From: a virus
Lineage: Duplodnaviria > Caudoviricetes
DNA: 47,263 nucleotides
IMG/VR virus record: IMGVR_UViG_3300037440_000041
Span: 1 to 47,263 of that record
Strand: one strand, 5' to 3'
Below, in pieces: positions 26,489 to 46,898 of this stretch (positions are counted from its first letter, which is position 1; the number at the start of each line of letters is the position of its first letter). The notes below the pieces were generated by a model. It did not search any database. It saw nothing but the letters and a program-made list of their open reading frames with translations, and was not told the DNA's origin. Position numbers and translations under genes: made by a program.

Positions 26489-26502
26489 CTAAGGAATAAC
26501 TA

Positions 26503-27719: not shown

Positions 27720-27725
27720 GTACTT

Positions 27726-28315: not shown

Positions 28316-28334
28316 TATATAGTTCAGCATTGCT

Positions 28335-28590: not shown

Positions 28591-28627
28591 TGATTATTGC
28601 ACGGAGAGGGTGGTACTGTCAAGAGCT

Positions 28628-28786
28628 ATGAGATTCAATAACTTCGATGATATCCTGTTCGAGACAGTCACAGTGTCTCGGAGTCCTGTAGAAGCGGTGA
28701 CTAGTGCTATGCTACTGGTCTCCCTGAACTGGTGGGGCTTGTACATGACAATGTGGAAAGCATGGAGGGGCTATGTCAATACGTAA
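28628..28786 (+). CDS. 52-aa hydrophobic Trp-rich protein
   Basis: Manual translation MRFNNFDDIL...LNWWGLYMTMWKAWRGYVNT. Confidence 0.45.
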   Translation: MRFNNFDDILFETVTVSRSPVEAVTSAMLLVSLNWWGLYMTMWKAWRGYVNT

Positions 28787-28949
28787 ACCCAAAGTTGAAG
28801 CTCTAACCGAAACCTGTTTCCGCATAACAGGTTTAGATTATTGGGTATTATCAGGAGAACGTGCATACTCAGATAGTGCTACGATATGGCAGCCTGAGGG
28901 AACGCTGACTCAGTTACAGGTCAATAGTGTGGTACTGCGCTTAACGTAA
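28773..28949 (+). CDS. microprotein family member (58 aa, ends VLRLT)
   Basis: SD GGAGG; clear paralog of 28959..29150. Confidence 0.7.
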   Translation: MSIRKPKVEALTETCFRITGLDYWVLSGERAYSDSATIWQPEGTLTQLQVNSVVLRLT

Positions 28950-28958
28950 GGATTTACA

Positions 28959-29150
28959 GTGGCTAAAGTTATTTTTATAGGCGAATACGATGTTAATGCC
29001 TATTTAATAAGTAATTTAATGAGTAAGTCTAATTATTGGGTGCTTGCCCAAGACCCTGGTTATTTAGACAGCACGTTAGTATGGCAGCCCAAAAACGTAC
29101 CCTCACTAAGTCAGTTGCAGATTGGAGGCTTAGTACTCCGCTTGACGTAA
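28959..29150 (+). CDS. microprotein family member (MAKVI...VLRLT)
   Basis: SD AAGGA then GTG; shares YWVL..Y.DS...WQP...L.QLQ...VLRLT with the previous gene. Confidence 0.7.
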   Translation: MAKVIFIGEYDVNAYLISNLMSKSNYWVLAQDPGYLDSTLVWQPKNVPSLSQLQIGGLVLRLT

Positions 29151-29170
29151 CCGGGAGCCGGTGGTATGCT
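29142..29170 (+). promoter_or_regulatory. sigma70-type promoter for tRNA
   Basis: TTGACG-17-TATGCT with TGn. Confidence 0.75.
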
Positions 29171-29179
29171 AGGCTTCGC

Positions 29180-29253
29180 TGGGGTGTAGCTGGACAGTCA
29201 AGCAGTGAGCTTATATCTCACCGACCCGAGTGCAATTCTCGGCACCCCAACCA
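29180..29253 (+). tRNA. tRNA with anticodon TAT (tRNA-Ile UAU)
   Basis: Acceptor TGGGGTG/CACCCCA + A-CCA; anticodon arm GTGAG-CTTATAT-CTCAC; T arm CCGAG-TGCAATT-CTCGG. Confidence 0.8.
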
Positions 29254-29271
29254 ACAGAGTCTAAGCTGTAG

Positions 29272-29300
29272 TTGACGGAGAGAGCGTATAGGGTTATGCT
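29272..29300 (+). promoter_or_regulatory. sigma70-type promoter upstream of the AAA/VWA-replication operon
   Basis: TTGACG-17-TATGCT, same boxes as 29142..29170. Confidence 0.75.
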
Positions 29301-29441
29301 AAGGCAAGCGTTCACGTTCCTAGTTCGATTCAATGGGTATACTTGTATCCGGTGTAACCGACGAGAGGCATTGCCTGATAAGAAATATTGTGCTAAGTGC
29401 TTAAAGCGTAGGACAAGCAAGTAATTTTCTAGGAGATAACA

Positions 29442-30629
29442 TTGGCTACTCGTACTACTAAGACCGCTGATAAGCCTGAGGAAGCGCCTAATCAGGAGCC
29501 TACTCGCGAAGATGTGTTCAACGCTGCACTCTGGATTGCACGCAATACGAACCGCGTCCCTACGGGGCATGGTCCTACCGCGAGTGGTAAGACCTTCGGG
29601 TTTAATGTGATGGCAGAGAGCATTGACGCAGAGCTTATTACTGTATTGCTGGGTCAGCACACTCCTGATGAGGTAGCGGGATTCCAGCTTGCTCTTAATG
29701 ACAAGCTTGTTATTCAAATGCCTTACTGGTTCCGTAAGGCTCAGGACGTTCTGGACAGTGGCAAGAGCGTTGTTATTCTGTTCGATGAGCTTAGTCTTAG
29801 CCGAGAGGAAACCCGTGGAGCGCTATACACCTTCTTCCGTGATCGTCACCTCCACGGTAATGGGTTCCAAATCCCGGATGGTAAAGAAGTTCTCATTGTG
29901 GCTGCTACCAATCCCGGTGCGTTTGCCCCTCCTTTCCGTTCGCGATGCATCTTTCTCCCCGTTCCAGCCGATCGTGACTATCTGCGTGGAATGATGCGGG
30001 GTGGATTCGGTAAGCGGGTTGCTAACATGGCTCCGCTTACCGTGGACAGTGACCCGGCGTACAGCAACGCCCCACCGCCAGCGCCTGAGACCTTCGACGC
30101 TAGCGCAGCTGCAGTGCTTAACAGTGTAGATGACCCTAAGACGGGGTTTTGGCGGCTCAGTGAGCCTACTAGGTTCCTGATTCTTAGTGGGGTGGTTCCC
30201 CACCAGACGCTTAACAGTGTTCTTAAAGAGTCTGGACTAGACGCTAGTGCACTTGCTCGCCAGCACGAAGAACTGCTCCGAGCGTTGCGTGCTCTGCCAC
30301 GGGACAAGAAGCACTCCATGATTAACAATGTGCTTGAATCTTTCCCGCAGATTGACAAGAATGAGCGTGCTGAGGCTATCCTTAGTATTCTCGATGCAAT
30401 TTATGACGACACGATGGCTGATGACCTTCACACGTACTTTAGTACTCCGCGTAGTGCAGAGGTTGTTAAGGCTGTGAGTGAAATCGACCCTGAATACATG
30501 GAGCGTCGGCTTAAGGAGCGTGGGTTACTCGCGGTAGAGGTGGACAAAAAGGGTAATAACAAGGTTAGTGGCTCGCTGGTTGCCCGTATTCAGGAAATGG
30601 TTAAGCGGACTGCTGACCAGGCCGGTTAA
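29442..30629 (+). CDS. MoxR-like AAA+ ATPase
   Basis: GPTASGKT, ILFDEL, IVAATNP, PPFRSRC. Confidence 0.85.
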   Translation: MATRTTKTADKPEEAPNQEPTREDVFNAALWIARNTNRVPTGHGPTASGKTFGFNVMAESIDAELITVLLGQHTPDEVAGFQLALNDKLVIQMPYWFRKAQDVLDSGKSVVILFDELSLSREETRGALYTFFRDRHLHGNGFQIPDGKEVLIVAATNPGAFAPPFRSRCIFLPVPADRDYLRGMMRGGFGKRVANMAPLTVDSDPAYSNAPPPAPETFDASAAAVLNSVDDPKTGFWRLSEPTRFLILSGVVPHQTLNSVLKESGLDASALARQHEELLRALRALPRDKKHSMINNVLESFPQIDKNERAEAILSILDAIYDDTMADDLHTYFSTPRSAEVVKAVSEIDPEYMERRLKERGLLAVEVDKKGNNKVSGSLVARIQEMVKRTADQAG

Positions 30630-30845
30630 ATGGTTGTAATCAGTGAGGTCGGGCCTGAAGGTAACTGGTTGTGGTATACTATAGGCGAGGGGGTAGGCTC
30701 GGCTTACCCCCGAGTAGCTTACCCCCGAGTACTAGAGTATTCTACTGCGTCTTACAAGTATCAACACGTGACAGCACTAGGTGCTGTGGATAGTTCTAGT
30801 GGTTTGACCCGTATTAGCAAAGACTATTGGTTAAGGATTATTTAA
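30630..30845 (+). CDS. microprotein family member (ends WLRII)
   Basis: Abuts the AAA stop; TAATG overlap with the VWA gene; internal AYPRV duplication. Confidence 0.6.
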   Translation: MVVISEVGPEGNWLWYTIGEGVGSAYPRVAYPRVLEYSTASYKYQHVTALGAVDSSSGLTRISKDYWLRII

Positions 30846-32104
30846 TGAAATTAAGCAACCGCAATCTTAACAACCCGGTGTACCGTAAGGTGCTCGACGC
30901 AGCACCTAGCTATATCAACACCCTAATTGGTACTGAGTGGCTTAGGTGTGAAGTACACGAAGAAGGTCCGGCGTTAGCGTGGACTACATATGACGAGGGT
31001 GCTAATCACTTTGTAGTTAACTTTCTAGAAATCGCTGCTGGTATGTCTAAAGAGGCCCTGTCTACTTTGTGGAGACACGAAGTGGGGCACGTAGCCCTCG
31101 GGCATTTCCAGCAGCCGTTGTGTAATGACAATGACAGTGTCGCAGATATTATGCGTGCTACTACTGAGCGTATGGTAGTTGCTGACATTCACATTAACTA
31201 CTACCTTCCTGAAGATATTATGCGGGAGATTGGGGAGACCGCTCTTTCTACCGTTCCTAAGGCTCTAAGAGACTCCGCCGAGCCTAAGGGTTATATTGAC
31301 CCTAAGGAGTGGCTGCCTAAGATTGGACTGAATGTAGATGAGTACCCATACGAAATCATCCACGCGGGTGTCCATCAGTTTGTGGATGAGCAGCAGCAGT
31401 CCGGTAGTGGAAATGTGGCCGGAAATGGGGGTCATGACCACTCCAATGGCATGTGTGGCGGTATTGAGCCGGTTGACGATGCTTCGGGAATGGCGGAAGC
31501 TTCGGCTGCTGTAGTCGCAGGTGTAGCCAGTGAGGGTGGCGAGGATGGTATCAGTGAATCGTGGGGTAATGGCTCTGGTCTAGATACTATTAGACTGGTG
31601 CAGTCAGACCTTCCCGAATGGATTACCGCACTGATGAACTTTGCTAGGAGCATTGTCGAGGTTGTCCTAGCTGAGAAGCGTAGCCATGCTAGACCGCAGG
31701 AAGCGTACAAGGCTTACGGTGTTCACATGCCTACGGTACGTCCTAGGTGGGACTACGCTCCTGCTCAGGTGTGTTTCCTTGTGGACACGTCCGGGAGCAT
31801 GGTGCATGAGCTTAAGTATGTTGGTCCTACAATAGATTATCTTGCGCAGCACAACGTCGCTACTCGACTAATCGCTGGTGATACTAGAGTTACGTTTGAC
31901 GAGATTGTTACGAGTGTTCCTGCTGGCCTGGTAGGTGGTGGTGGCACTGAAATCTCACCGTTGTTCGAGCGTGCTGAGGATTACTCCCCCGAGAGCATCG
32001 TGTGTTTCTCCGATGGGTATGTCCCCGGCTGGCCCAAGGAGCCCGGCGTGCCTGTGTTGTGGGTAGGTTGCCAAGCTACCCCACCGTTTGGAGTCAAGGC
32101 ATAA
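30845..32104 (+). CDS. DUF2201-like HExxH metallopeptidase + VWA domain protein
   Basis: HEVGH, D..IN, DTSGSM MIDAS, GGGGT, FSDGY. Confidence 0.85.
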   Translation: MKLSNRNLNNPVYRKVLDAAPSYINTLIGTEWLRCEVHEEGPALAWTTYDEGANHFVVNFLEIAAGMSKEALSTLWRHEVGHVALGHFQQPLCNDNDSVADIMRATTERMVVADIHINYYLPEDIMREIGETALSTVPKALRDSAEPKGYIDPKEWLPKIGLNVDEYPYEIIHAGVHQFVDEQQQSGSGNVAGNGGHDHSNGMCGGIEPVDDASGMAEASAAVVAGVASEGGEDGISESWGNGSGLDTIRLVQSDLPEWITALMNFARSIVEVVLAEKRSHARPQEAYKAYGVHMPTVRPRWDYAPAQVCFLVDTSGSMVHELKYVGPTIDYLAQHNVATRLIAGDTRVTFDEIVTSVPAGLVGGGGTEISPLFERAEDYSPESIVCFSDGYVPGWPKEPGVPVLWVGCQATPPFGVKA

Positions 32105-32316
32105 TGGCTAAAGTAATACTAACTTCTAATGGTAATTACAACATGGGGCGTTGGTTTCCTGTGGGGCTATACAATCCGGATAATTCAAAACCGGAAATGG
32201 CATCCAGGGATGCATCTAATTATTCTGAAATACACCTACCACTAAAGAACCAACCTAAAGACACTACTATGAGAGCGCCAGTAGGCGTATTCCTCCTACT
32301 AGTAACGTCAAACTAA
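32104..32316 (+). CDS. microprotein family member (MAKVI...APVGVFLLLVTSN)
   Basis: TAATG overlap; same N-terminus as 28959. Confidence 0.6.
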   Translation: MAKVILTSNGNYNMGRWFPVGLYNPDNSKPEMASRDASNYSEIHLPLKNQPKDTTMRAPVGVFLLLVTSN

Positions 32317-32340
32317 CTTGTTTAAACTAGCAGGCATAAC

Positions 32341-32541
32341 TTGTTTAAACTAGAAGCGCCATATACATGTAGCCTGTACTGTCGAAGTTGTGTTCAGGAG
32401 ACTCAGCACAAATTGGCGGGTAAAGGGTATACGTGTAACACATGCAAAAGGTTTATACATGCTGTAGAAGTAGTTGCTACTTATTCTTTAGACGACGTGT
32501 CACAGCCGTACGTTCTGCACTTACCACGGAGACTGCAATGA
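32341..32541 (+). CDS. zinc-ribbon protein
   Basis: CRSC..ETQH...YTCNTC. Confidence 0.55.
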   Translation: MFKLEAPYTCSLYCRSCVQETQHKLAGKGYTCNTCKRFIHAVEVVATYSLDDVSQPYVLHLPRRLQ

Positions 32542-32587
32542 TTGAGGGTGGAGCATACTTGTTCCGGTCAGTAATAATTAAGATACT

Positions 32588-32755
32588 ATGAATAATTTAC
32601 GTCTCATAGAAGGTTATGGTTCGTATAGGTTCGGTACACAACCTTATATATTGGGTGTTAATGGTGGTGGTTATAGGGCAGACCAGGGTCCCACTCAAGT
32701 CCGGTTTGACAATGTACGCATGATTAACAAAAGATTCTTACTTAGGGTACTTTAA
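32588..32755 (+). CDS. microprotein family member (55 aa, ends LLRVL)
   Basis: ATGA and TAATG overlaps; preceded by a 17-aa ORF 32538..32591 ending IIKIL. Confidence 0.6.
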   Translation: MNNLRLIEGYGSYRFGTQPYILGVNGGGYRADQGPTQVRFDNVRMINKRFLLRVL

Positions 32756-33372
32756 TGCAGCAAGACTTAACATTAGCACTAGCAGTAGCCGGGTGTAACA
32801 AAGCATGTAAACTATTGACTGATAGGGGTGGTGTTCCTTGCCCAGCTATGCCTGGTAAGGACTACCAGCCAGGCGGTATTGCTTTGTTCTTAGAAGCGCC
32901 CGGTGCTGATGAAGAGCAGCCTCTTACGAAGGGTGCTGCTTACGGCGCACCGCTGGTAGGCCGTGCTGGTAAGCTAATGAACACCCTGCTCTACCGTGCA
33001 GGGCTTACTCGGGACGAAGTGTTGGTAATGAATCGCATCAGGTGCAGGCCACCGCGTAACCGTATCGTAGACTACCCTGACGCTGTGCTAGCGTGTGATG
33101 ATTGGGTGCAGCGAGAGCTAGCCACGTACGCCCCTTCAGTAGTCGTGCTGTGTGGCAAGGTAGCGGGGGAGACCGTGTTCGGTGCTAACATAGGCGTCGG
33201 TGCTACTCGTGGTACAATTAGGCACACACAGCCACCGAATCCTTACGGTGACCGCGACTGGATTATGACCTACCACCCTAGCGCAGCACTCCGGCACGGT
33301 GGAGCAGGGTCTAACGTAGCCGAACTAATAGTCACAGACTTAATGGAAGCTAAGAGGTTACTTAATGCCTAA
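32755..33372 (+). CDS. family-4-like uracil-DNA glycosylase
   Basis: EAPG..EE, PLVGRAGKL, N..RCRPP.NR, TYHPSA; Fe-S Cys pattern. Confidence 0.88.
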   Translation: MQQDLTLALAVAGCNKACKLLTDRGGVPCPAMPGKDYQPGGIALFLEAPGADEEQPLTKGAAYGAPLVGRAGKLMNTLLYRAGLTRDEVLVMNRIRCRPPRNRIVDYPDAVLACDDWVQRELATYAPSVVVLCGKVAGETVFGANIGVGATRGTIRHTQPPNPYGDRDWIMTYHPSAALRHGGAGSNVAELIVTDLMEAKRLLNA

Positions 33373-33526
33373 GATTATAGATGATGTTACGGTTTCCTTA
33401 CAGTGGCATAGATACAGTATGAGGAATATGGATTGGGCTCTAGGTATATGTCCTAACCACGCAGGTACTGTAGGTATGAACCTTAATCTAATAATTATGC
33501 CACACGCTTTTCTTAAGTTAATCTAG
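33365..33526 (+). CDS. microprotein family member (53 aa, MPKII...AFLKLI)
   Basis: Manual translation; SD GAGG. Confidence 0.6.
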   Translation: MPKIIDDVTVSLQWHRYSMRNMDWALGICPNHAGTVGMNLNLIIMPHAFLKLI

Positions 33527-33535
33527 AGGTGCAGT

Positions 33536-35692: not shown

Positions 35693-35701
35693 GGAGGTAC
35701 T

Positions 35702-35794
35702 ATGTTCGTAGTCTTTATTGTGGGTGCTATTATCATTGCTGCTGCTGGTGGGTACGCTATTTATGACGCCTTTACGCAGTACGGGTTTTACTAA
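35702..35794 (+). CDS. 30-aa single-TM peptide
   Basis: SD AAGGAGGT; MFVVFIVGAIIIAAAGGYAIYDAFTQYGFY. Confidence 0.6.
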   Translation: MFVVFIVGAIIIAAAGGYAIYDAFTQYGFY

Positions 35795-35828
35795 GCGCGC
35801 ACGCGTACGATTTTTGTAGCAGACTTTA

Positions 35829-36143
35829 GTGCAAGTACGTACGCCATCTGCTCGGACCCTTAAGCGTTACGGCTTGAGCCCTGAAGCTTGGCGTGGTATA
35901 CTTAAGGGCCAGGGGGGCGTGTGCGCTGTCTGCGGTACGGTCCCCAAGTCAGGGGGTTTAGTAATAGACCACGAACACACTAGAGGGTGGGCCAAGCTCC
36001 CACCAGAGAAGCGTAGGCTATACGTTCGTGGCTTACTATGCTCCTACGATAATTTCAGGTGGTTAAGGAAGGGAGCAACAACCCAAAGGCTAAGAGCGGC
36101 AGCCGATTACTTAGAACGATACGAAAAGACAAGGAGTAAATGA
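35829..36143 (+). CDS. endonuclease VII-family protein (resolvase or homing endonuclease)
   Basis: YGL...QGGVCAVC...VIDHEH...VRGLLC..DN...AADYL. Confidence 0.85.
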   Translation: MQVRTPSARTLKRYGLSPEAWRGILKGQGGVCAVCGTVPKSGGLVIDHEHTRGWAKLPPEKRRLYVRGLLCSYDNFRWLRKGATTQRLRAAADYLERYEKTRSK

Positions 36144-36292
36144 AGCTATTTATAGAAGCAACAATAGACCCTAATGAGTTGGATATCGGTGTTATGGGTA
36201 GTTGGTTGGAGGAAGTTAAAGACAAGGTACGGGAGTACGCCAAGTTAGACAAAGCCGAGCTAACAGAAATCCCTAACATACTCAGTATTTAA
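36140..36292 (+). CDS. 50-aa hypothetical protein
   Basis: ATGA overlap; MKLFIEATID...IPNILSI. Confidence 0.55.
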   Translation: MKLFIEATIDPNELDIGVMGSWLEEVKDKVREYAKLDKAELTEIPNILSI

Positions 36293-36299
36293 GGAGTAA

Positions 36300-36572
36300 A
36301 TGACACACGTAATCGGATACTACAAGTCTGAAGATGTCCCTGGCACAAACATTAATCTGTACCACGACTATTGGTGGAGTAGCGCGGATGGTGATGAAGT
36401 TTGTCTCAATGTAGAAATCGGTAAGGAGACAGCCTACCTGACTAAAGATGAGACTGAGACTTTTGTTGCAGAGCTAATGGAAGCACTCAATGAGTGGGAC
36501 AACGTAGCGCTCGAAATGAAGCAGAGGTACACCCCTGTTGCAGTTGATGTAGTGGACGTGGAGGTAAACTAA
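36300..36572 (+). CDS. acidic hypothetical protein
   Basis: SD AAGGAG. Confidence 0.6.
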   Translation: MTHVIGYYKSEDVPGTNINLYHDYWWSSADGDEVCLNVEIGKETAYLTKDETETFVAELMEALNEWDNVALEMKQRYTPVAVDVVDVEVN

Positions 36573-36573
36573 T

Positions 36574-37008: not shown

Positions 37009-37019
37009 GGGCTCGCAGG

Positions 37020-37054
37020 AGGGCGGGGCGGCTGACAACCGCTCCGGCCCTCTT
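37020..37054 (+). terminator. intrinsic terminator-like hairpin
   Basis: agggc-ggggcgg/ccgctcc-ggccct followed by ctt. Confidence 0.5.
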
Positions 37055-37143
37055 ACGTGGTACTACTGCGGTAAGTGCCGTAAGCCTACGGACATTGAAG
37101 TTATGCGGGTGAGAGATGGTATGTACTTTTGCAAGAGGTGCAA

Positions 37144-37320
37144 ATGACTACAGTAGTAGCAAGGTATGAATCGGTACAGGGTAAAAATGCATTGTTTTAC
37201 AGGACGCCACTACCCGATGGTAGCATGGCGCTAGGCACCAACCATCTTAAACCAGAAATGTATGCCTACGCATACGCAGGTGGTGTTGCCTACCTTACAG
37301 GTAGATTGAGGTTGCTGTGA
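37144..37320 (+). CDS. microprotein family member (ends RLRLL)
   Basis: SD GAGGT then ATG 37144. Confidence 0.6.
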   Translation: MTTVVARYESVQGKNALFYRTPLPDGSMALGTNHLKPEMYAYAYAGGVAYLTGRLRLL

Positions 37321-37457
37321 AATTGTTAGAAACAGATTACTCTTATAGCTTCAAGGGTATTGATTGGATTGTGTGGGGTAAAGACAATTATGAGGCAAAG
37401 GATGTCTCTATTTATTGGGGGACTGCTGCATACTTTAGTTGTATGAGGTTATTATAA
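37317..37457 (+). CDS. microprotein family member (46 aa, ends CMRLL)
   Basis: GTGA overlap; MKLLETDYSYSFKGIDWIVWG...FSCMRLL. Confidence 0.6.
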   Translation: MKLLETDYSYSFKGIDWIVWGKDNYEAKDVSIYWGTAAYFSCMRLL

Positions 37458-39514
37458 TTACAAACGACATACTATCAGCAGCATTAGCCTATGCCGAGCA
37501 AGGCTTCCTGGTATTCCCTATTAAATCAGGCGGTAAGACCCCGCTTACAGAGAATGGATTTAAAGATGCCACTATTAGCGGTAGCAGTATCAGGTCATGG
37601 TTCGAAGGCAGGGTCAACGGAACTAGAAATATTGCCATTTGCACAGGGCAGGAGTCGGGCTTCTTTGTTATTGACGTTGACCCGCGCAATAACGGACACA
37701 AGTCTGCCGTACTCTCGAAGCTGGGTGTGCCTACTGTAGCTACAGGTGGTGGGGGTTATCATTACTACTTCAAATATCCCGCCGAGTCAATCAGGTGGCG
37801 GAAGACACTCGACAAAGGCATCGACATTAAGGCAGATAACGGATACGTACTTGTACCACCTAGTGTTACATCAGCTAAATATTCGTTCATCGCAACCACT
37901 CACACACCAAGTAATTTACAAACAATTCTTACAGAAGCGCCTGCTTGGCTTGTAGAAGCATGTATTAAGCCTGAGATAAACCCCGCTAAAATAATAACTG
38001 GCCACGTTACTAGCGATGTGACAGACACCCGCCCCGGCAGCGTGTTCAACCGCACAGCGTCGTGGTCTGGTATACTAGAACCTCACGGGTGGGTAGCCGT
38101 CCGTGAAGAAGATGGTGAAGTTAACGGTGAAGTATTCACCGAAACGTTCTGGCGTAGGCCGGGGAAAGCGGAAGGCGTTAGTGCCACCACAAACTACGAC
38201 GGGCATGACTATCTCTACGTCTTTACAAGTAGCGCGGAGCCCTTGGAGTCCGGGACCGCATATACGAAGTTCGCTGCGCAGACCAATCTTAATTACGGGG
38301 GAAACTATAGCGCAGCATCAAGAGCGTTGGCTAATGGATTTGCAATGGCTGGGCCTACTATAACTACACCTTATTCATTCACACCAGCTACGGAGGCAGA
38401 CCACTTTGTCCAACGATACATTGATTATGCGTCAAAGCAGACGGATGCTCCTACCGAGTATCATGAAGCCGGGGCACTCACACTCCTATCTATGGCTACT
38501 TCACGGTGTCGAGCTAGTCTCGCACCGTACCCCGGAGGGCTACGCAATAACTTATATATCACACTTGTAGGTACACAGGGTCAGTCACGTAAAAGTACTG
38601 CTCAGCGTATAGCAATTGATATTGCTAAAGCGGTAATGCCTGCTAGCATCCTACCTAACCGCGCTACTACTGAGGCTCTAATCAAATCGTTGTCACAACA
38701 CAATGGTATCCCCGCTATCTGGACTCCCGATGAATTCGGTGTAGCGTTAGCAGAAATGTATTCAAGAACATTCATGGCTGGTTTAGAGGAACTACTACTA
38801 AGTGCCTACTCCGGTGACGACTATATCTACGAGCGCAGTAATGACACACTCACCATTCGGCAGCCGTATCTCAGTGTTCTCGCCGCCGCTACGCCTGAAA
38901 GCATTAGCAGGACTGGGGGAACTGCACTTGAGTCTGGCCTACTACCTCGCTTTGCTGTAGTGTACCCCAAGACTCTGCCTGCACCTAAGCCAGTGGGTAA
39001 CTCAGTACCTGACCTAGCAGTAGAGCGTGCTAACCTAATCAGTTTTCTTAAGGACTTACTTACTTGGACGAACTCTAATGATAAAGTTACCTTCACAAAA
39101 GAAGCACTCAAAATCCTTAACGATGCGGAGTCGGGATTGGTGGGTAGAGCAGGCTCACGCCTGCCCGCAATGTTATACAAAGTCAGCGCGCTTTTGTCTC
39201 TGGCATCTAACAATACCAGTGTCGAGCGAAATATGGCTGAGGCTGCTGTAGTTATAGTAAACCGCTGGCGTACAGGTATGGAAAACCTGGTACCACTACT
39301 CAGTAAGGGCGGTAGTGACCCCGTGTTTACTCGCCAAGCTGAGTACGCTCTTGATATAGTCGTCAATCATTCAGGGCGCGTAGCACGTACCGTTATTGCT
39401 GAGGCACTGCGCCTTAAGGCAAGCCGAGTCGATGAGCTAGAACGTGCCTTGATCGATTGGGGTCAAATTAATTTGGACGTAAAGAACGGCCACAAGATTT
39501 GGATGAGACCATAG
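37439..39514 (+). CDS. bifunctional primase-polymerase fused to DUF3987-like helicase domain
   Basis: VFP...KTP..NGFKDAT, NIAI.TG, VIDVDPRN, TGGGG.HYYF, YVLVPPS; G..GQSRKST, DEF, GLLPRF. Confidence 0.88.
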   Translation: MYEVIIITNDILSAALAYAEQGFLVFPIKSGGKTPLTENGFKDATISGSSIRSWFEGRVNGTRNIAICTGQESGFFVIDVDPRNNGHKSAVLSKLGVPTVATGGGGYHYYFKYPAESIRWRKTLDKGIDIKADNGYVLVPPSVTSAKYSFIATTHTPSNLQTILTEAPAWLVEACIKPEINPAKIITGHVTSDVTDTRPGSVFNRTASWSGILEPHGWVAVREEDGEVNGEVFTETFWRRPGKAEGVSATTNYDGHDYLYVFTSSAEPLESGTAYTKFAAQTNLNYGGNYSAASRALANGFAMAGPTITTPYSFTPATEADHFVQRYIDYASKQTDAPTEYHEAGALTLLSMATSRCRASLAPYPGGLRNNLYITLVGTQGQSRKSTAQRIAIDIAKAVMPASILPNRATTEALIKSLSQHNGIPAIWTPDEFGVALAEMYSRTFMAGLEELLLSAYSGDDYIYERSNDTLTIRQPYLSVLAAATPESISRTGGTALESGLLPRFAVVYPKTLPAPKPVGNSVPDLAVERANLISFLKDLLTWTNSNDKVTFTKEALKILNDAESGLVGRAGSRLPAMLYKVSALLSLASNNTSVERNMAEAAVVIVNRWRTGMENLVPLLSKGGSDPVFTRQAEYALDIVVNHSGRVARTVIAEALRLKASRVDELERALIDWGQINLDVKNGHKIWMRP

Positions 39515-39684
39515 TGAGAATGTTAAAGAAGTGGGGCCATTATAGAACTACGTGGGTGCTACATGAACCTATGACTATTTACGTTACAGTACTTAACCAA
39601 CGTAATAAACGCAGTGCTAAATACCTGGTGCGTATGAACGACAAAGATTTAGTCATTCCAGATGCTATTCTGCGTGTAATCTAA
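39514..39684 (+). CDS. microprotein family member (ends AILRVI)
   Basis: TAGTG and TAATG overlaps. Confidence 0.6.
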   Translation: MRMLKKWGHYRTTWVLHEPMTIYVTVLNQRNKRSAKYLVRMNDKDLVIPDAILRVI

Positions 39685-40544
39685 TGCGTATGACCAACAA
39701 GCTAGGTTTACCCCAACCCATCTATGACGCTGTGTGTAACGACACCTACGAACGTGGTGCTGACACCGACATCAGTGTCACCCAGTTAATAGACCCACCC
39801 AGACTGGTAGCACTGAGTAAACTATACCAGGAGGTATTAGAAGAAGATGCATCTGATAGAATCTGGTCTTTGGTTGGTCAGTCAATGCACACTATTCTTG
39901 AACGTGCTGGTGTTGCCGGGTCTGTTGATGGTGAGTCTGTTGGAGAACAGACCGAAAAGCGTCTCTACGCTACTGTTAACGGGTGGACTATTAGTGGGCA
40001 ATTTGATTACATTGATAGTGACGGCACACTATGGGATTGGAAACTAGCTAGTGTATGGGAGGTCATGAACGGTGTTAAGGATGCGAGAACACATCAACTC
40101 AACGCCTACGCTTATCTTGCCGCTGTTAATGATATCGAAGTCAAACAACTCCGAGTCGGATTTATACTGCGAGATTGGCGCAAACACGCGGCCCGGACTG
40201 AGGCGGGGTACCCTCCTTACCAAGTCATGGTTTACCCTATTCCGCTCTGGCCCCTTGGACAAAGAGAGGCGTATCTACAAGAGCGAGTCGTTACCCACCA
40301 GGCGGCTAGGATAACGCTGCCTGAGTGCACTCCTGAAGAACGTTGGGCTAAGCCTGACACATGGGCAGCACGCAAGCCTGCTAACAAGCGGGCTAGTAAA
40401 GTGTTCGGTTCTGCTGCGGAGGCACACGCATGGGCAAAATCTAGTCCAAGTTATATAATAGAGAGACGCCCCGGAGTCAGTATCCGCTGTGAATCCTACT
40501 GCTCAGTTAGTTCTGTGTGTACACAGTTTAAGGGATTAAAGTGA
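39684..40544 (+). CDS. Cas4-like PD-(D/E)xK exonuclease
   Basis: G..MH..LE, EKR, SGQFD...DWK, QLN.Y, C-terminal RC.SYC.V...C.Q. Confidence 0.8.
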   Translation: MRMTNKLGLPQPIYDAVCNDTYERGADTDISVTQLIDPPRLVALSKLYQEVLEEDASDRIWSLVGQSMHTILERAGVAGSVDGESVGEQTEKRLYATVNGWTISGQFDYIDSDGTLWDWKLASVWEVMNGVKDARTHQLNAYAYLAAVNDIEVKQLRVGFILRDWRKHAARTEAGYPPYQVMVYPIPLWPLGQREAYLQERVVTHQAARITLPECTPEERWAKPDTWAARKPANKRASKVFGSAAEAHAWAKSSPSYIIERRPGVSIRCESYCSVSSVCTQFKGLK

Positions 40545-40726
40545 AGGTAGAGTTTACTCACCCACCGTCATGGTGGAGGTTCTCATTCAACGATGAATCT
40601 GTACCTATTACACCTTTATGGATTAGTGAATCTACTGTACGTCCGTATATGGCACCAGCAATATTTACATTCGCTGGGGCACAACTAGCTTCACAAGACT
40701 CCGGCTACTACATAAAACTACTATGA
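40541..40726 (+). CDS. microprotein family member (MKVEF...GYYIKLL)
   Basis: GTGA and ATGA overlaps. Confidence 0.65.
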   Translation: MKVEFTHPPSWWRFSFNDESVPITPLWISESTVRPYMAPAIFTFAGAQLASQDSGYYIKLL

Positions 40727-40914
40727 ACAAGGTAAAACGTGACGACGCTAACCTGTGGTGGAACTACACCCTTTGGGACAGAGACAGTACTTGGTTATTG
40801 TACACTATTAAAAGAAATGGTAGTTACACTTCTGGTGCTCGTGTAGAGGCCAATTATATTAAACAAGTAGCTGCTCGCTCCGTTAACACAGGTTACTATA
40901 TGAGGATACTGTGA
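40723..40914 (+). CDS. microprotein family member (MNKVK...GYYMRIL)
   Basis: Shares WW and GYY-x-[KR]-xL with the previous gene. Confidence 0.65.
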   Translation: MNKVKRDDANLWWNYTLWDRDSTWLLYTIKRNGSYTSGARVEANYIKQVAARSVNTGYYMRIL

Positions 40915-41123
40915 ATAAGCAGACTATAGATGAGTATGGGGTACGCTGGTCGGTGCAAGCACGTGATCCCGCATCGAAGCTGGTTAATACGTTACGGCGT
41001 AAAGGTTACATGTATGTGGTATTACCTCGTAAGACTTATCGTACTGGTGAACTAACAGACTGCAATAGTGATGACTATCTGATTAATGTACGACTAAAGG
41101 ATTGTGTCCAATGCTTACAGTAA
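40911..41123 (+). CDS. small hypothetical protein, possible microprotein family member
   Basis: GTGA overlap; LINVRL near, but not at, the C-terminus. Confidence 0.5.
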   Translation: MNKQTIDEYGVRWSVQARDPASKLVNTLRRKGYMYVVLPRKTYRTGELTDCNSDDYLINVRLKDCVQCLQ

Positions 41124-41287
41124 CTTCTGATTATTATGGTACAACTTATGATATAGGTTATGAGTTGGGGGGTATCATGTATACAACCAAGCTGCCTGAC
41201 TGGGGCAACCGAGAACCCAAGTTAACCTTTACCCCAAAGCGTACCTTCTACACCGTTAGTGGGTCATTAGACTTACAGCTAATTTAA
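41111..41287 (+). CDS. microprotein family member (ends DLQLI)
   Basis: SD AAGGA then ATG 41111. Confidence 0.55.
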   Translation: MLTVTSDYYGTTYDIGYELGGIMYTTKLPDWGNREPKLTFTPKRTFYTVSGSLDLQLI

Positions 41288-41296
41288 GGAGTATAA

Positions 41297-41839
41297 TTGC
41301 GTACCGTAGTATGTGACCTGGAAACCACCGACCTTAGAGCGGATATTGGTGTCTTAATAGTAGCGTGTTATGGCGTGCTAGACGATGATGATAATATCAA
41401 GGAGATGCACACCGAGACTATCCAGTCTATAGGTAAGGGTACAGTAGCTGACCGTGAACGTAAGCTAGCGCTGTGGGCTAGCAAGCAGTGGTCTGACTCC
41501 GATATAATCATAGGCCAGAATCACGTAGGCTTCGACCGCCACTTCTTGGATGGAGTGTTGTTCCGTAACCAGCTTCCCATGCTCCCTCCACGTATACTGT
41601 GCGACACCTATCAGACAGCTAAGGGTAAGCTTGGTATGGGTGCTAGTATGCGTAACCTGGTGGACATCATGGGTATCGGAGCTAAGGATGCTCCTAGTAA
41701 AGATGATTGGCGTAAGGCTAATCACGGGGACAAAGAAGCACTAGAGCGTATTAAAGAGCGTTGCGAATCAGACGTAGAAATGACGGCTGCTATGTGGCGT
41801 CGGCTTAAGCCAATCTATTACTCCCGATGGGGACGTTAA
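41297..41839 (+). CDS. DEDD/RNase H-like 3'-5' exonuclease
   Basis: CDLETT, GQNHVGFD, RCESDV. Confidence 0.8.
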   Translation: MRTVVCDLETTDLRADIGVLIVACYGVLDDDDNIKEMHTETIQSIGKGTVADRERKLALWASKQWSDSDIIIGQNHVGFDRHFLDGVLFRNQLPMLPPRILCDTYQTAKGKLGMGASMRNLVDIMGIGAKDAPSKDDWRKANHGDKEALERIKERCESDVEMTAAMWRRLKPIYYSRWGR

Positions 41840-42021
41840 TGAAAGTAGAAGTTGATATTGACTATGAAAACAAAAGAGCTGAGCGATGGTATCAGTTCGC
41901 CGCTGATAAAGAGTGGCGGACTGACGAGATATTTGCTCATGCTCTTACCCACACAGAAGCTTACGCGTGGAGTGATACTAAGTGGTTTAACAGTACACAG
42001 TTTGGGTTACGGTTAGTATGA
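41839..42021 (+). CDS. microprotein family member (MKVEV...GLRLV)
   Basis: TAATG overlap; RWY motif. Confidence 0.65.
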   Translation: MKVEVDIDYENKRAERWYQFAADKEWRTDEIFAHALTHTEAYAWSDTKWFNSTQFGLRLV

Positions 42022-42031
42022 AAGGATTAGT

Positions 42032-42262
42032 ATGACAGTAACACCGGGGCCTGATGCCCCACTACCTATGACATTTAGAGAGACAGTAGAGCGTACTGTC
42101 CAGAAGTTTGTACGTGACCTAGTAGTTAACCTAGTAATGGTGTCACCTATGCTGCTTGGTGATGGTGAGTTTAGCGCGGCACTAATACTACCAACTATTG
42201 GTCTAGCTTTCTACAGAACGTTTCGCGATGTATTTCCGGGCATCGTTCGGAGGGCCGGGTAA
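42032..42262 (+). CDS. two-TM membrane protein, holin-like
   Basis: ETVERTVQKF recalls the ER.VKTF motif of r1t-type holins; two hydrophobic segments. Confidence 0.45.
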   Translation: MTVTPGPDAPLPMTFRETVERTVQKFVRDLVVNLVMVSPMLLGDGEFSAALILPTIGLAFYRTFRDVFPGIVRRAG

Positions 42263-42264
42263 GG

Positions 42265-43869
42265 TTGCAATTCTCCGAAAATGCATTATATATTCTAAAA
42301 GAAAGGTACCTCAGTAAGCACTCCGGTACACAAGAAACTGTTGGTGAGTTTATTGACAGAGTGTCAATGGGTAACCAAGAGTATAAGGATGAACTAATTG
42401 CACCGCTTAACTTTCTACCAAATTCCCCAACACTATTCAACATGGACGTTCCCGGAGGGGGGACACTTTCAGCCTGCTTCAAGTTTGACGTTAGTGATAC
42501 CATGCTCGACGGCTTCGACGGTATCATGGACACCGCTACCAAAGCCGCACTGGTCACAAAGTGGGGTGGCGGTACTGGGTACTACGTCGGGGCTATCCGA
42601 CCTAAGGGTGCTCTAGTAAACAGTACCCACGGCTCTGCTATGGGACCAGTAGCTGTACTACGGTTTTATAATGGTATCGGTAAGATGATGACTCAGGGCG
42701 GTAAGCGTGAAGCTGCTCAGATGGGTATCCTAGACTGCGACCACCCAGACATACGTGAATTCATACACATGAAAGACACTGACCCGCAAGCACTAAGCAC
42801 GTTTAATATTAGTGTGAGTATTTCTGACAGTTTTATGGGGAGGGCGGTACACCGTGACACCAGGGAACATTCCATACTATGGGAAATGGCCGAAGCTGCT
42901 TGGCGTACCGGCGACCCCGGTGTTTATTTCGGGGATAGGGCAGAGGCCGACAACCCTACAAGGTTTTTGGGTAGGCTCACGGGCACCAATCCGTGTGGAG
43001 AGGTCCCCTTACTCAATAACGAAGCTTGTAACCTCGGTTCGATTAATCTAAGGAACATGTATGCTGACGGTATCAATTGGGAGCTACTACACAGGACAGC
43101 TACACTCGCCACACGGTACCTCGACGATGTTCTCGAACGCAATCACTTCCCCGTGGAATCCGTTGGTGTTGCCACTAATTTCACGCGAAAACTCGGGCTT
43201 GGCGTATGCGGTTGGGCTGACCTACTCGCGTTGATGCGTATTCCATACGCTAGTGACGAGGCTGTCAACCTGTTAGAAGCTGTTATTGCGTTTATACGAA
43301 AGGCGGCTGATGAAGAATCATTACGACTCGGAGAAGAACGTGGCCCAGCACCGTGCTTCGCTGGTACTGAGATTAGATTCCGTAATGCAACACGGTGCTG
43401 CATTGCCCCTACTGGCACAATTGCAATCCTCATGGGTGCAAGTAGTGGAATTGAGCCGCACTACCTCCGTGGGTGGACACGAACCCTCGGCGATGGTACT
43501 GTACTCTCTGAACATATAGGTGTTCTAAACGACACAGACTACGTACCGCAAACTGCTATGGAGATACCGTGGGAGTGGCACGTTAAGCACCAAGCTGCTG
43601 CTCAGAGACACACTGACTTAGCTGTCAGTAAGACAATTAATATGCCTAACTCTGCTACTGTGGAAGACATTTACAATGCTTATGTGTACATGTGGACACT
43701 AGGGTGTAAGGGTGGGACAGTGTACCGTGACGGTTGTCGTGAAACACAAGTCCTTAATGCTGTCGATGAAATTTTAGTAGAGTGTCCTAATTGTGGTGCT
43801 GGTATCAAACATGTTGAAGGATGCGCTACTTGTGCAGCGGAGTGTGGGTGGGGACTGTGCAGTACATAA
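42265..43869 (+). CDS. nrdJ: class II (B12-dependent) ribonucleotide reductase
   Basis: ERYL, FLPNSPTL, LSAC, QGG.R..A.M, TNPCGE, CNLGSINL, IAPTGT, SSGIEP; no beta subunit gene; C-terminal Zn ribbon. Confidence 0.9.
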   Translation: MQFSENALYILKERYLSKHSGTQETVGEFIDRVSMGNQEYKDELIAPLNFLPNSPTLFNMDVPGGGTLSACFKFDVSDTMLDGFDGIMDTATKAALVTKWGGGTGYYVGAIRPKGALVNSTHGSAMGPVAVLRFYNGIGKMMTQGGKREAAQMGILDCDHPDIREFIHMKDTDPQALSTFNISVSISDSFMGRAVHRDTREHSILWEMAEAAWRTGDPGVYFGDRAEADNPTRFLGRLTGTNPCGEVPLLNNEACNLGSINLRNMYADGINWELLHRTATLATRYLDDVLERNHFPVESVGVATNFTRKLGLGVCGWADLLALMRIPYASDEAVNLLEAVIAFIRKAADEESLRLGEERGPAPCFAGTEIRFRNATRCCIAPTGTIAILMGASSGIEPHYLRGWTRTLGDGTVLSEHIGVLNDTDYVPQTAMEIPWEWHVKHQAAAQRHTDLAVSKTINMPNSATVEDIYNAYVYMWTLGCKGGTVYRDGCRETQVLNAVDEILVECPNCGAGIKHVEGCATCAAECGWGLCST

Positions 43870-44102
43870 TGAACACATCAGATTTTACAACAGATTGGAT
43901 TAATACCGAAGAAGACCCGTGGATAAGAACTACTGTACCTCGATACACTACGACTACTACAACTACTAATACGTATGCCATACCCACCGTAATCTTTCCT
44001 ACACAGAATTCACAGCAGTATGCAAATACTGTTCAAGTAGTAGCTGACTACGCTGGTGGTTATTATCTACGTGGGAAGGGGAAGAGCCTACGCCTGCTGT
44101 AA
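43869..44102 (+). CDS. microprotein family member (77 aa, Thr run, ends SLRLL)
   Basis: TAATG overlap. Confidence 0.55.
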   Translation: MNTSDFTTDWINTEEDPWIRTTVPRYTTTTTTTNTYAIPTVIFPTQNSQQYANTVQVVADYAGGYYLRGKGKSLRLL

Positions 44103-44257
44103 ATGCTATAGAAGTCATTTGCACTACCGCCCCTGGGTGGGGTACGCTTGTCAGCGGAGCCGTGTTCATGGTAGGCTTTGCCTTAGCCGGTGTAGTGTGC
44201 GGACCGCTAGGGTGGTGGCTAGGGGGCAAGGTGTGGAGCATGGTGGGAGGTGATTAA
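44090..44257 (+). CDS. possible TM peptide lacking a canonical start
   Basis: Open frame ...IEVICTTAPGWGTLVSGAVFMVGFALAGVVCGPLGWWLGGKVWSMVGGD*, TAATG-coupled to the next gene. Confidence 0.4.
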   Translation, partial: TPAVNAIEVICTTAPGWGTLVSGAVFMVGFALAGVVCGPLGWWLGGKVWSMVGGD

Positions 44258-44463
44258 TGAGGTTGTGGCATAAGCATTCTTGGGTGTACGACACTTATGA
44301 AGAAAGAAACTGGCTACCTGAATGTAACCATAAATATACTCTTAGAATACCACGGTGCAGACACTGTACATCATGCCCTAAACATGAATACTACGATGAC
44401 TGGAAAGTTGACTGGCCTATCGAGAGGATAGAACGGAATAGGGCTACCCCTATAATCCTATAA
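44257..44463 (+). CDS. small Zn-binding protein
   Basis: HKHSW...RCRHCTSC. Confidence 0.6.
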   Translation: MRLWHKHSWVYDTYEERNWLPECNHKYTLRIPRCRHCTSCPKHEYYDDWKVDWPIERIERNRATPIIL

Positions 44464-44594
44464 TGTGGATAACTCGTGACTCCAAACGATGGTTCTACGT
44501 ACCGGACACCATGAAAGGATTACTGCCTTACCAGCGTGACGCATATATGGCTTATGTTTCAGGACTAGGAAGAAGGTTGCTTAAAGGCATATGA
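44463..44594 (+). CDS. microprotein (43 aa, ends LLKGI)
   Basis: TAATG and ATGA overlaps; RWFY. Confidence 0.5.
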   Translation: MWITRDSKRWFYVPDTMKGLLPYQRDAYMAYVSGLGRRLLKGI

Positions 44595-44761
44595 CTGTAC
44601 AAATGATGCAACACGAAGGTTGTGGGTACACCCGTAGGAACGCCGATTTTTGGTACGATTTAGCGTTAAGTAAAGATTTTGTTACTGGATATGAGATGAT
44701 TTACTTAAACCAAGTAGTACAGTTTCAGGCACCTAGTGGCGTAATATTGAAGGTGCTGTAG
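44591..44761 (+). CDS. microprotein family member (56 aa, ends APSGVILKVL)
   Basis: Manual translation; FWYD; tail resembles APVGVFL of 32104. Confidence 0.6.
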   Translation: MTVQMMQHEGCGYTRRNADFWYDLALSKDFVTGYEMIYLNQVVQFQAPSGVILKVL

Positions 44762-44943
44762 TGGCGCGTGTTACTTATGGAAGTACTAATACGTATACTT
44801 GGTATGACTTTAATGCCCTAGACCCGTTCTACATCCTTCTTGCGCAAAGGCGCGGGTCAGTCCACACATTACCCTATTTAACAGAAGTGGATGGACACAT
44901 AGGTCATTCTAGTGGGGCATATGGTTCCCTAAGGATTTTATAA
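44761..44943 (+). CDS. microprotein family member (MARVT...SLRIL)
   Basis: TAGTG and TAATG overlaps. Confidence 0.65.
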   Translation: MARVTYGSTNTYTWYDFNALDPFYILLAQRRGSVHTLPYLTEVDGHIGHSSGAYGSLRIL

Positions 44944-45122
44944 TGGCACGTATGCGGCACGGTGATAATAAGTCATACGGTTGGTATGACCTTAATAGTT
45001 ATGATGCATTTTTCGTTATGCTGAAAGCATATACTCATAATGGTTCCGCACCATTTATAAGTGAACAACGGGACCAGTTAGAACTCACGTTAACTGAGGG
45101 CTCACACGTGAGGATTATCTAA
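44943..45122 (+). CDS. microprotein family member (59 aa, MARMR...HVRII)
   Basis: Paralog of the previous gene (MAR...G...Y.WYD.N..D.F...L). Confidence 0.65.
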   Translation: MARMRHGDNKSYGWYDLNSYDAFFVMLKAYTHNGSAPFISEQRDQLELTLTEGSHVRII

Positions 45123-45469
45123 TGCGACAGTTCGCGATGGACGCTGCCACTGAGGTTAGGCTAGAATCCAATATGAAGCAGCGCGTAGGTGCTGCTCTTG
45201 TTCGTGGGAATAGAATTATAGGTCTAGCTTCTAACAAGACAGGGTGCTCACCGGCAGGGGGGTGGTCTAGACATGCAGAAATACGTGCTTGTATTAACCG
45301 CAACGCGTTCGGAGCGTCCGTGTATGTATCACGGGTACACGGACATAGCGGAACCCCGCTTCTTGCTAAGCCTTGCAGGGTATGTCAAGCATGGCTTACT
45401 ACCATTGGTGTCCGAAGGGTCTACTTCTCGGTAGCTGAGCCTCCGTACTGGGAGGAAATGAGGTTATGA
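45122..45469 (+). CDS. cytidine/dCMP deaminase-family protein
   Basis: VGAALV, HAE, PCxxC. Confidence 0.85.
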   Translation: MRQFAMDAATEVRLESNMKQRVGAALVRGNRIIGLASNKTGCSPAGGWSRHAEIRACINRNAFGASVYVSRVHGHSGTPLLAKPCRVCQAWLTTIGVRRVYFSVAEPPYWEEMRL

Positions 45470-45849
45470 AGAAAAAGAAACCTGTGTATGTTACACACTG
45501 CGTATCCTGTAATGTAGAGATACGTGGTACAGGGAAGTTTATTAAACTACGGTGCCCCGATTGTACACCTCGTCGTAAACTACGAAACCTGGGGGATAAA
45601 TATACTGCTAGTGATGGGTATGTAACAGTACTCACAGAAAGTGGCGCTGTTGCAGAGCACAGGTTAGTTATGGAAAAATTACTGGGTAGAAAATTACTCC
45701 CAGGAGAGAACGTTCATCACAAAAACGGTATACGCGATGACAACCGCCCCGAGAATCTTGAATTGTGGGTTAAACCACAACCATCGGGGCAGCGTGCAGG
45801 GAACCTCCAATGTCCCCACTGTGGTAAAAGGTACTTGGACACCGATTAA
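45466..45849 (+). CDS. HNH homing endonuclease
   Basis: EHRLVME..LGR.L...ENVHHKNG.RDDNRPENLEL. Confidence 0.88.
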   Translation: MKKKKPVYVTHCVSCNVEIRGTGKFIKLRCPDCTPRRKLRNLGDKYTASDGYVTVLTESGAVAEHRLVMEKLLGRKLLPGENVHHKNGIRDDNRPENLELWVKPQPSGQRAGNLQCPHCGKRYLDTD

Positions 45850-46058
45850 CTAAAATATGCTAAGAAAAACCGTTTAGGAGTAAAATGGTTAGGTTCAGAA
45901 ATTTATGCTAGCGAACAAAAAGCCTAAGACCCTAACCCTAAATTGTAGTGGGTGCGGAAAAGGTGTGAGAAACGTCCTCCCTTCACACGGAGGGAAGGTG
46001 CTTGAGGCATGGCATCCAGCATGCAGTCCGTATGTAGGTAAGGGTATCGGGGGTTAGT

Positions 46059-46604
46059 GTGAAGGTACTGGTTGCGTGTGAATTCTCTGGGGTTGTACGA
46101 GACGCATTCATAGCCCGTGGACATGACGCTATTAGCTGTGACCTTCTTCCCTCAGAGTCTCCCGGCCCCCACATACAAAGAGATATCCGAGAGATAGACT
46201 TGAGCGTGTACGACTTGATGATTGCGCATCCTCCATGTACACATCTAGCAGTCTCTGGAGCACGGTGGTTCAAGGATAAGCAGAAGGAACAGGCGGAGGC
46301 CCTTAACTTTGTACGGTATCTACTTGAAGCACCTGTACTAAAGATTGCCTTAGAGAATCCTATCAGTGTTATCTCATCACGTATACGTAAGCCAGACCAG
46401 ATTGTCCAGCCGTGGATGTTTGGACATGGGGAAACAAAAGCCACCTGTTTATGGCTTAAGAATTTGCCTAAGCTGAAGCCCACGAATATTGTAAATGGGC
46501 GAGAGCACCGCGTACATCAGGAACCACCATCACCTGAGCGGTGGAAGAACCGTAGTCGTACGCTTCAGGGAATTGCTGATGCTATGGCGGCACAGTGGGG
46601 TTAA
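46059..46604 (+). CDS. phage DNA cytosine methyltransferase-like protein
   Basis: VLVACEFSG, SCDL, AHPPCT, LENP, K.TCLWL, RSRT..GIADAMA.QW. Confidence 0.75.
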   Translation: MKVLVACEFSGVVRDAFIARGHDAISCDLLPSESPGPHIQRDIREIDLSVYDLMIAHPPCTHLAVSGARWFKDKQKEQAEALNFVRYLLEAPVLKIALENPISVISSRIRKPDQIVQPWMFGHGETKATCLWLKNLPKLKPTNIVNGREHRVHQEPPSPERWKNRSRTLQGIADAMAAQWG

Positions 46605-46606
46605 AT

Positions 46607-46652
46607 AAAAAAGCGGTTGCTGAAGCGTGGAAAGTGTACGCTCGCAACCGCT
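46607..46652 (-). terminator. long hairpin with 5' A-tract (terminator on minus strand or bidirectional)
   Basis: aaaaa-agcggttgc..agcgt / acgct.gcaaccgct. Confidence 0.5.
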
Positions 46653-46736
46653 GGCCTAGTATGAATCCGTATCACTTATCTCTAGAGTCTGCTGCGGAGC
46701 ACTTTGCAGCAGGTTATGAAGCAGGGGCTAGTTTTT

Positions 46737-46898
46737 ATGCCTAGAGTTACAGAAAAGCTAGAGACACTACACACCGGCAGCGCTACCACATACTTTGTAC
46801 TAGATGATATTACTAGCATATTGGTACTAACGAACAGAATATTCCCTAAAGCATCTGGTTGGTGTGACATAACTAACCTCTGTGTAAAGGTGGTCTAA
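46737..46898 (+). CDS. microprotein family member (MPRVT...CVKVV)
   Basis: ATG 46737; TAATG overlap with the next gene. Confidence 0.55.
   Translation: MPRVTEKLETLHTGSATTYFVLDDITSILVLTNRIFPKASGWCDITNLCVKVV

Follow-up and report, generated by a model that had tools for sequence, protein, structure and literature searches.

The window analysed here is the whole 47,263-nt virus record IMGVR_UViG_3300037440_000041 (Duplodnaviria; Caudoviricetes), a complete record with direct terminal repeats of 127 bases. Terminase and tail genes lie in its minus-strand arm, and the core of the plus-strand (replication) arm comprises a MoxR-like AAA ATPase, a VWA protein, uracil-DNA glycosylase (UDG), PolA, a primase-helicase, two nucleases, ribonucleotide reductase (RNR), a deaminase and a methyltransferase. 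Between these core genes we found small open reading frames (ORFs), here called members, whose products end in a shared tail of hydrophobic residues around one basic residue. They fill 3,288 of the arm's 18,126 bases and about 7% of the genome. The original prediction had listed 20 such ORFs, all of which exist with the coordinates and ends claimed; 18 are counted here as full-length members. The small ORFs are as follows (all plus strand; SD, Shine-Dalgarno):

28773..28949, plus strand: member, 58 aa, VLRLT end (Arg CGC), tandem paralogue of 28959 (z 15.1)
28959..29150, plus strand: member, 63 aa, VLRLT end (Arg CGC), followed by a tRNA gene and no coupled ORF
30630..30845, plus strand: member, 71 aa, WLRII end, TAATG overlap with the VWA gene
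32104..32316, plus strand: atypical member, 70 aa, motif LLLV followed by TSN, Leu at the basic position and three extra residues
32538..32591, plus strand: 17-aa ORF, IIKIL end, ATGA coupling at both sides, possibly a truncated member
32588..32755, plus strand: member, 55 aa, LLRVL end, TAATG overlap with the UDG gene
33365..33526, plus strand: member, 53 aa, FLKLI end, modelled with five beta strands, in frame with the PolA N-terminus after its TAG
37144..37320, plus strand: member, 58 aa, RLRLL end, GTGA overlap with member 37317
37317..37457, plus strand: member, 46 aa, CMRLL end, adjoining the primase-helicase gene
39514..39684, plus strand: member, 56 aa, ILRVI end (Arg CGT), TAATG overlap with a PD-(D/E)XK exonuclease gene
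40541..40726, plus strand: member, 61 aa, YIKLL end (Lys AAA)
40723..40914, plus strand: member, 63 aa, YMRIL end
41111..41287, plus strand: member, 58 aa, DLQLI end, next gene with its own SD word
41839..42021, plus strand: member, 60 aa, GLRLV end (Arg CGG), next gene with its own SD word
43869..44102, plus strand: member, 77 aa, Thr run, SLRLL end (Arg CGC), located after RNR
44463..44594, plus strand: not a member but a separate conserved 43-aa gene, LLKGI end
44591..44761, plus strand: member, 56 aa, ILKVL end, TAGTG overlap
44761..44943, plus strand: member, 60 aa, SLRIL end, tandem paralogue of 44943 (z 11.9)
44943..45122, plus strand: member, 59 aa, HVRII end, TAATG overlap with the deaminase gene
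46737..46898, plus strand: member, 53 aa, CVKVV end, TAATG overlap

The proposed family of about 20 is thus reduced to 18 full-length members. The ORF at 44463 was excluded because it is a conserved separate gene without the motif register, with an orthologue in the related phage G001 (z 9.7; tblastn 44% over 25 aa), and the ORF at 32538 encodes just 17 aa and is noted apart. Three small genes (40911-41123, 42032-42262 and 44463-44594) are conserved in G001 at 35-52% identity and form a control set for the members.

For the statistics we defined the strict tail as [LIVMFW][RK][LIVM][LIVM]-stop and a small ORF as one of 40-90 aa, and tiled the plus strand from 28000 to 47263 blindly. The strict tail was present in 14 of the 32 small ORFs and in none of the 13 large genes, compared with a mean of 0.066 and a maximum of 2 in 5000 within-ORF shuffles. 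Among 16 unrelated phage loci it ended 1 of 132 small and 2 of 252 large ORFs, and at off-frame stops within 27 large window genes it occurred, in the most favourable frame, at 7 of 478 (Fisher p 6e-14). Among the non-member genes, 26 have a stop that overlaps or adjoins a start, and none of them shows the tail; 18 of these are ≥90 aa, and the small genes of the set are non-members partly through lacking the tail.

Further counts refer to a curated set of 39 members, 18 from the window, 13 from G001 and 8 from the metagenome loci L030, L033 and L034, those of the relatives having been picked by eye via the tail; six candidates (window 44463 and 32442, G001 19762, L031 2808 and 6619, L033 1344) were dropped before counting. 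In this tail-chosen set Leu stands at position -4 in 25 and Arg or Lys at -3 in 33, and 33 of the 39 are 50-65 aa long. Positions -12, -8 and -6 played no part in choosing members, and here hydrophobic residues are found in 24/39, 4/39 and 26/39, respectively (family-wise p 0.022, 0.002 and 0.002). Judged from the residues, this pattern is that of a strand-turn-strand (hairpin) running into the tail. The M-x-[KR]-hydrophobic start described for the N-termini holds for 11 of the 18 window members and does not extend to those of the relatives (3/21); it also occurs in 3/13 other small ORFs and in 3/10 core genes.

The DNA of the tail often doubles as the next gene's likely ribosome-binding signal. 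Where no SD word follows the stop, the basic position is encoded by AGG or AAG in 20 of 29 members, compared with 2 of 10 where there is one (p 0.011), and Arg or Lys at -3 is found in 27/29 and 6/10, respectively. Position -3 is Thr or Gln in 4 of the 10 members with an SD word of their own next to them, while 2 of the other 29 are non-basic (p 0.028). The hydrophobic positions of the tail stay even where -3 relaxes to Thr or Gln, which fits an exposed strand position. At position -2 we counted ten different codons, every one with a middle T. Most members overlap the start of the next gene, and stop/start overlaps are described as a basis of translational coupling (PMC6728339), while the tail is kept in members without a coupled neighbour (28959, G001 22093). 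The hydrophobic pattern reflects a constraint on the protein, and the basic residue serves both the protein and the ribosome-binding site; this split follows from the tail-free overlapping genes, the low off-frame rate, the varied codons and the SD-linked AGG/AAG. The statement that the tail is not merely a by-product of the next SD thus stands for its hydrophobic positions, at the protein level, and falls short for the basic residue, which is partly SD-driven. Hydrophobic last residues are reported to be depleted in bacteria generally (PMC7246954), and since the tail ends run against this trend, a positive reason for them is needed.

The ATPase has 47 relatives besides itself with 37-69% identity. 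DNA of relatives comprised G001 (46 kb), the one clade member found in the viral contig scans, and five short loci from the metagenome scan; scans of GTDB genomes revealed no clade relative, and among annotated phages no close relative of the window was found. Members are present in five related contigs, and an ORF listing of G001 shows eight strict-tail ORFs between the genes of its arm. The junctions discussed below involve the following context features:

29180..29253, plus strand: tRNA-Ile, anticodon UAU, just after member 28959
29442..30629, plus strand: MoxR-like AAA+ ATPase, core gene
30845..32104, plus strand: VWA-like (DUF2201) protein with HExxH motif, core gene

Window and G001 share member sites before VWA, UDG, PolA, the primase, the exonuclease and the gene preceding RNR, as well as after RNR. 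G001 lacks members at two junctions filled in the window, and the window lacks the one that G001 has after PolA. In L031, AAA is joined directly to VWA and UDG directly to PolA, with no member in between. Bodies at the same junction are unrelated in most cases (z<2 in 16 of 17 pairs across phages), while in the same phage comparison the flanking core genes are 48-66% identical and two ordinary small genes 43-49%. The deaminase gene of L034 and a resolvase-like gene of L033 are relocated, yet a member lies directly upstream of each. Three ORFs at the UDG junction (window 32104, G001 7729, L031 2808) extend 3-4 residues beyond the motif. Hypervariable bodies, as originally proposed, and cassette turnover are therefore seen at shared junctions that are filled, refilled or empty in the window, G001, L030 and L031. 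No reverse transcriptase (RT) of a diversity-generating retroelement (DGR) and no integrase explains this diversification: in agreement with the original prediction, Pfam gave no RT or integrase match among 75 ORFs. A repeat scan of 23600-47263 found neither member-linked repeats nor a template/variable repeat pair. As for att-like cassette sites, Pfam and PHROGs gave no integrase match, and the repeats are short junction words only, for example family D7.

Kinship between bodies is clearest in the tandem pairs 28773/28959 and 44761/44943, in which body residues are kept while codons have changed; the former is the top of 741 pairs in a frame-blind DNA alignment, with identities of 0.59/0.73/0.44 by codon position. 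Window 33365 is nearest to a G001 member from a different junction (z 6.0). A subgroup of nine members has a loose Y-x-phi-x-G-x-x-aromatic pattern (phi, hydrophobic), and another of ten a near-invariant Trp.

Members are real coding ORFs that change fast. Their GC content is 0.35-0.47, and by codon position it is 0.47/0.42/0.38 compared with 0.58/0.45/0.46 in core genes, a shift mostly at positions 1 and 3. T at four-fold third positions (0.40) matches the other genes of the phage (0.39 and 0.42), which fits in-frame, long-resident coding sequence. The bodies differ from off-frame composition in Leu (7% vs 16.5%) and Asp (6% vs 1.4%), and an origin of the bodies by overprinting was thereby ruled out. 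ATA makes up 50% of Ile and TTA 33% of Leu codons in members, both rare-looking; in small ORFs as a whole ATA accounts for 45-50% of Ile, compared with about 20% in large genes. Members are richer in Tyr/Trp and have a higher beta propensity than core genes (p 5e-7 and 2e-5). In the one DNA sequencing run with the sequence, which may be its source, there were no differences, and no RNA run was listed.

AlphaFold2 with a nine-row alignment predicted five strands for 33365 at a mean pLDDT of 69.5, the last strand being residues 48-52 within a block of pLDDT 78-85. The original prediction of a small beta-fold with paired end strands is matched by this model as far as the all-beta nature goes; the pairing of first and last strand is not, residues 1-10 lying below pLDDT 50. 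Going by the models, one fold is likely for all members. Foldseek returned no match for member models at E≤0.001; its best viral rows, two uncharacterised phage proteins of 49 and 54 aa (TM 0.53-0.59), are leads only. The best hit of a VIA fold search had Z 4.0 among 48,161 chains, and SH3 domains were not among the fold rows listed for the five-strand, medium-confidence query. ESM Atlas gave no usable match for 40723 and a best value of 0.78 for 33365.

Sequence searches gave a similar picture. Pfam had no match for the 18 window members and the PDB sequences none for members, while PHROGs gave a single weak match (37317, E 0.0064). In NCBIfam 1 of 35 queries had a weak match (E 3e-4), which we judged to be chance. 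A profile of the nine-member subgroup, A5, which covers nine of the 39 members, recovered its own members only (7 of 15 candidates). A5 was the sole subgroup profile tried on 1.84 billion proteins; it retrieved six members and two long repeat proteins, the latter being rejected as relatives since their scores add up from weak repeats. Titles and abstract openings of mostly open papers described no such family; small phage families are listed in the supplements of PMC7824862 and could bear on novelty.

Several other features of the region were noted in passing. Beyond its TAG, the frame of member 33365 continues as the open PolA frame, with no ATG, GTG or TTG before 33683, and the part 33527-33683 matches G001 PolA from residue 2; candidate explanations are a near-cognate ACG start at about 33536, a fusion by amber readthrough or a one-base error, although the contig shows no such error. 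Several core genes of the clade seem to use ATA, ATT or CTG as start codon, preceded by good SD words (G001:14733, G001:15792, G001:10971), and the window primase may, to judge from a TAATT overlap, start at ATT at about 37456. L032 carries at 435-808 genes for tRNA-Leu(UAA), tRNA-Ile(UAU) and a tRNA with anticodon CUA, a potential suppressor of amber stops. Endonuclease VII-like and HNH genes, two of each, lie at 27264-27755 (minus strand), 35829-36143, 45466-45849 and 22197-22682 (minus strand), the first of which runs opposite to the direction of its arm. ORF 26503-26889 holds three tandem 24-base copies at 26750-26821. The early region of the window (24000-26500) has a GC content of 0.55-0.57, short ORFs and TTGACA-type promoter-like words; together with a GC island of 0.61-0.66 at about 20200-21700 in G001, it may point to a host of high GC content. 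Scans for promoters and terminators gave about as many hits as shuffled sequence (29 vs 27.8 and 16 vs 12.7), and Rfam found tRNAs only.

We consider it quite plausible, if still short of probable, that the members, typically some 55-60 residues long, are small all-beta binders directed against host defence or host control proteins, prone to turnover and made together with the replication enzymes. The tail would then be a structural strand, with hydrophobic residues buried at -6, -4 and -2 and -3 exposed, which closes the C-terminal hairpin. Each member would start at the previous stop, with its final codons containing the SD and start of the gene that follows, and members would persist at junctions with their bodies replaced because the tail codons supply the next SD and the stop/start overlap. 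Losing a member would often deprive an essential gene of its initiation signal, whereas swap or duplication would keep the register. Phage replication proteins are reported to be often sensed by defence systems (10.1101/2022.08.27.505566), and coupling would tie member output to just these proteins. A number of observations weigh against this reading. When the G001 arm was tiled blindly, just 3 strict and 7 loose tails emerged among its 16 small ORFs, and the members of the relatives were tail-picked. Of the 990 body pairs 10 reach z>4, and the two subgroup profiles match at the tail only (probability 4%), from which it follows that several unrelated bodies may share one ending; the expanded paralogue family first proposed is thus upheld for the tandem pairs and one subgroup, and not as common ancestry of all bodies. 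Where alignments are guided by protein, their position-2>1>3 pattern is in part produced by the alignment itself (null 0.40/0.45/0.30), and Tyr/Trp content and beta propensity are no higher than in the window's 13 other small ORFs (p 0.37 and 0.31). The shared fold depends on one medium-confidence model; in a second one (44761), at pLDDT 51.8, there are five strands and the tail is not resolved, and ESM Atlas models 40723 at a pLDDT of 0.38. Finally, profile searches including the 1.84 billion proteins found no close relative.

An unlikely alternative reads the tail as a docking or degradation signal on unrelated bodies, with one reader (the ClpX zinc-binding domain (ZBD), another AAA+ protease or the phage MoxR/VWA-peptidase) and with the bodies picking the targets. 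The lack of detectable kinship between subgroup bodies is in line with it, as are the 11 of 33 Arg/Lys at -3 in non-SD codons (CGN, AGA, AAA) and the depletion of hydrophobic last residues mentioned above. According to the cited texts, the tail fits the ClpX ZBD consensus LKxh (PMC7226468) and resembles the SspB end RGGRPALRVVK (PMC8808172), and an adaptor-like phage protein for ClpCP is known (PMC6873191). Yet the tail is preceded by a hydrophobic strand-turn-strand and no flexible linker, the basic residue drifts once the need for an SD is lifted, three ORFs run past the motif, and a similar C-terminal motif of RssB is described as integral to its fold, with no ZBD binding (PMC7226468). In L031 the AAA/VWA pair is retained while two junctions filled elsewhere are free of members; the pair is linked to the members by neighbourhood alone. 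When 33365 was modelled in complex with the E. coli ClpX ZBD, the score was 0.11 (mark 0.32), which favours neither side. Of the free-tail ClpX adaptor suggested earlier, the resemblance in pattern remains, while the features just listed point to a strand within the fold. An extended form of it seems rather improbable to us: a modular library of some 20 unrelated, swappable target-binding microdomains that share one strand for docking on a single unfoldase or protease (of ClpX type from the host, or the phage MoxR/VWA-peptidase), remove host defence proteins and, through the same codons, are chained to essential replication genes and thereby hard to lose.

It is equally doubtful that members are near-neutral coupling spacers which carry ribosomes across junctions and supply the next SD, their hydrophobic ends marking them for disposal. 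The frequent overlaps with the next start, the unrelated bodies at the same junction, the rare-looking codons and the reported reduction of protein levels by hydrophobic C-termini via degradation (PMC7246954) would suit such spacers, but core genes couple without any in L031 and at other junctions, uncoupled members keep the tail, and the narrow length range, the hairpin before the tail and the retention of body residues in tandem pairs despite changed codons also speak against them. By far the least credible is a tail that arises on unrelated accessory genes as a by-product of SD and stop/start overlap or of T-ending codons in a shifted frame. AGG accounts for 17 of 27 tail Arg codons compared with 14% in core genes, and nested off-frame ORFs do share the ending at times; against this, none of the other overlapping genes has the tail, its off-frame rate is about 30-fold lower, the bodies lack off-frame composition and the codons at -2 vary around their middle T. 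This explanation is largely refuted for the hydrophobic positions and partly holds for the basic residue.

Small phage accessory genes between conserved gene pairs are reported to act often on host defences (Silas et al., 10.1101/2023.04.06.535777). As described there, these genes are likewise small, fast-evolving and uncharacterised, with conserved neighbours and both gain and loss; the members differ in occupying most junctions of one replication operon and in sharing a C-terminal motif that often provides the next SD. Bacillus phage G likewise carries many copies of one small protein type, about 35 zinc ribbons in the account of PMC7824862, whereas the members lack a metal-binding motif (Cys 0.6% in window members), reside in a 47-kb genome and mostly have no full-length homology to each other. 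The same source reports phage MoxR-vWA-peptidase pairs with a proposed role in virion assembly. SspB-type ClpX adaptors with an XB tail, as presented in PMC7226468 and PMC8808172, share L-[RK]-x-hydrophobic near the C-terminus with the members, which differ by the absence of a flexible leash, by the hairpin pattern before the motif and by a basic residue that is partly set by the SD. With micro-ORF cassettes derived from DUF6745 there is no PF20530 match in Pfam and no tetrapeptide repeat was seen. Fast-evolving accessory genes between core genes are a known kind; what is new, as far as searched, is that one dual-coded end is shared at most junctions of a replication operon.

Members thus match no catalogue despite the roughly 7% of the genome that they occupy. 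As a binder library, they would offer a compact, testable supply of new counter-defence proteins, as well as a small natural scaffold in which nearly the whole sequence can change; with the tail as a docking signal, the phage would have built a programmable degradation system. The dual-coded end is a simple route for accessory genes to hitch-hike on essential genes.

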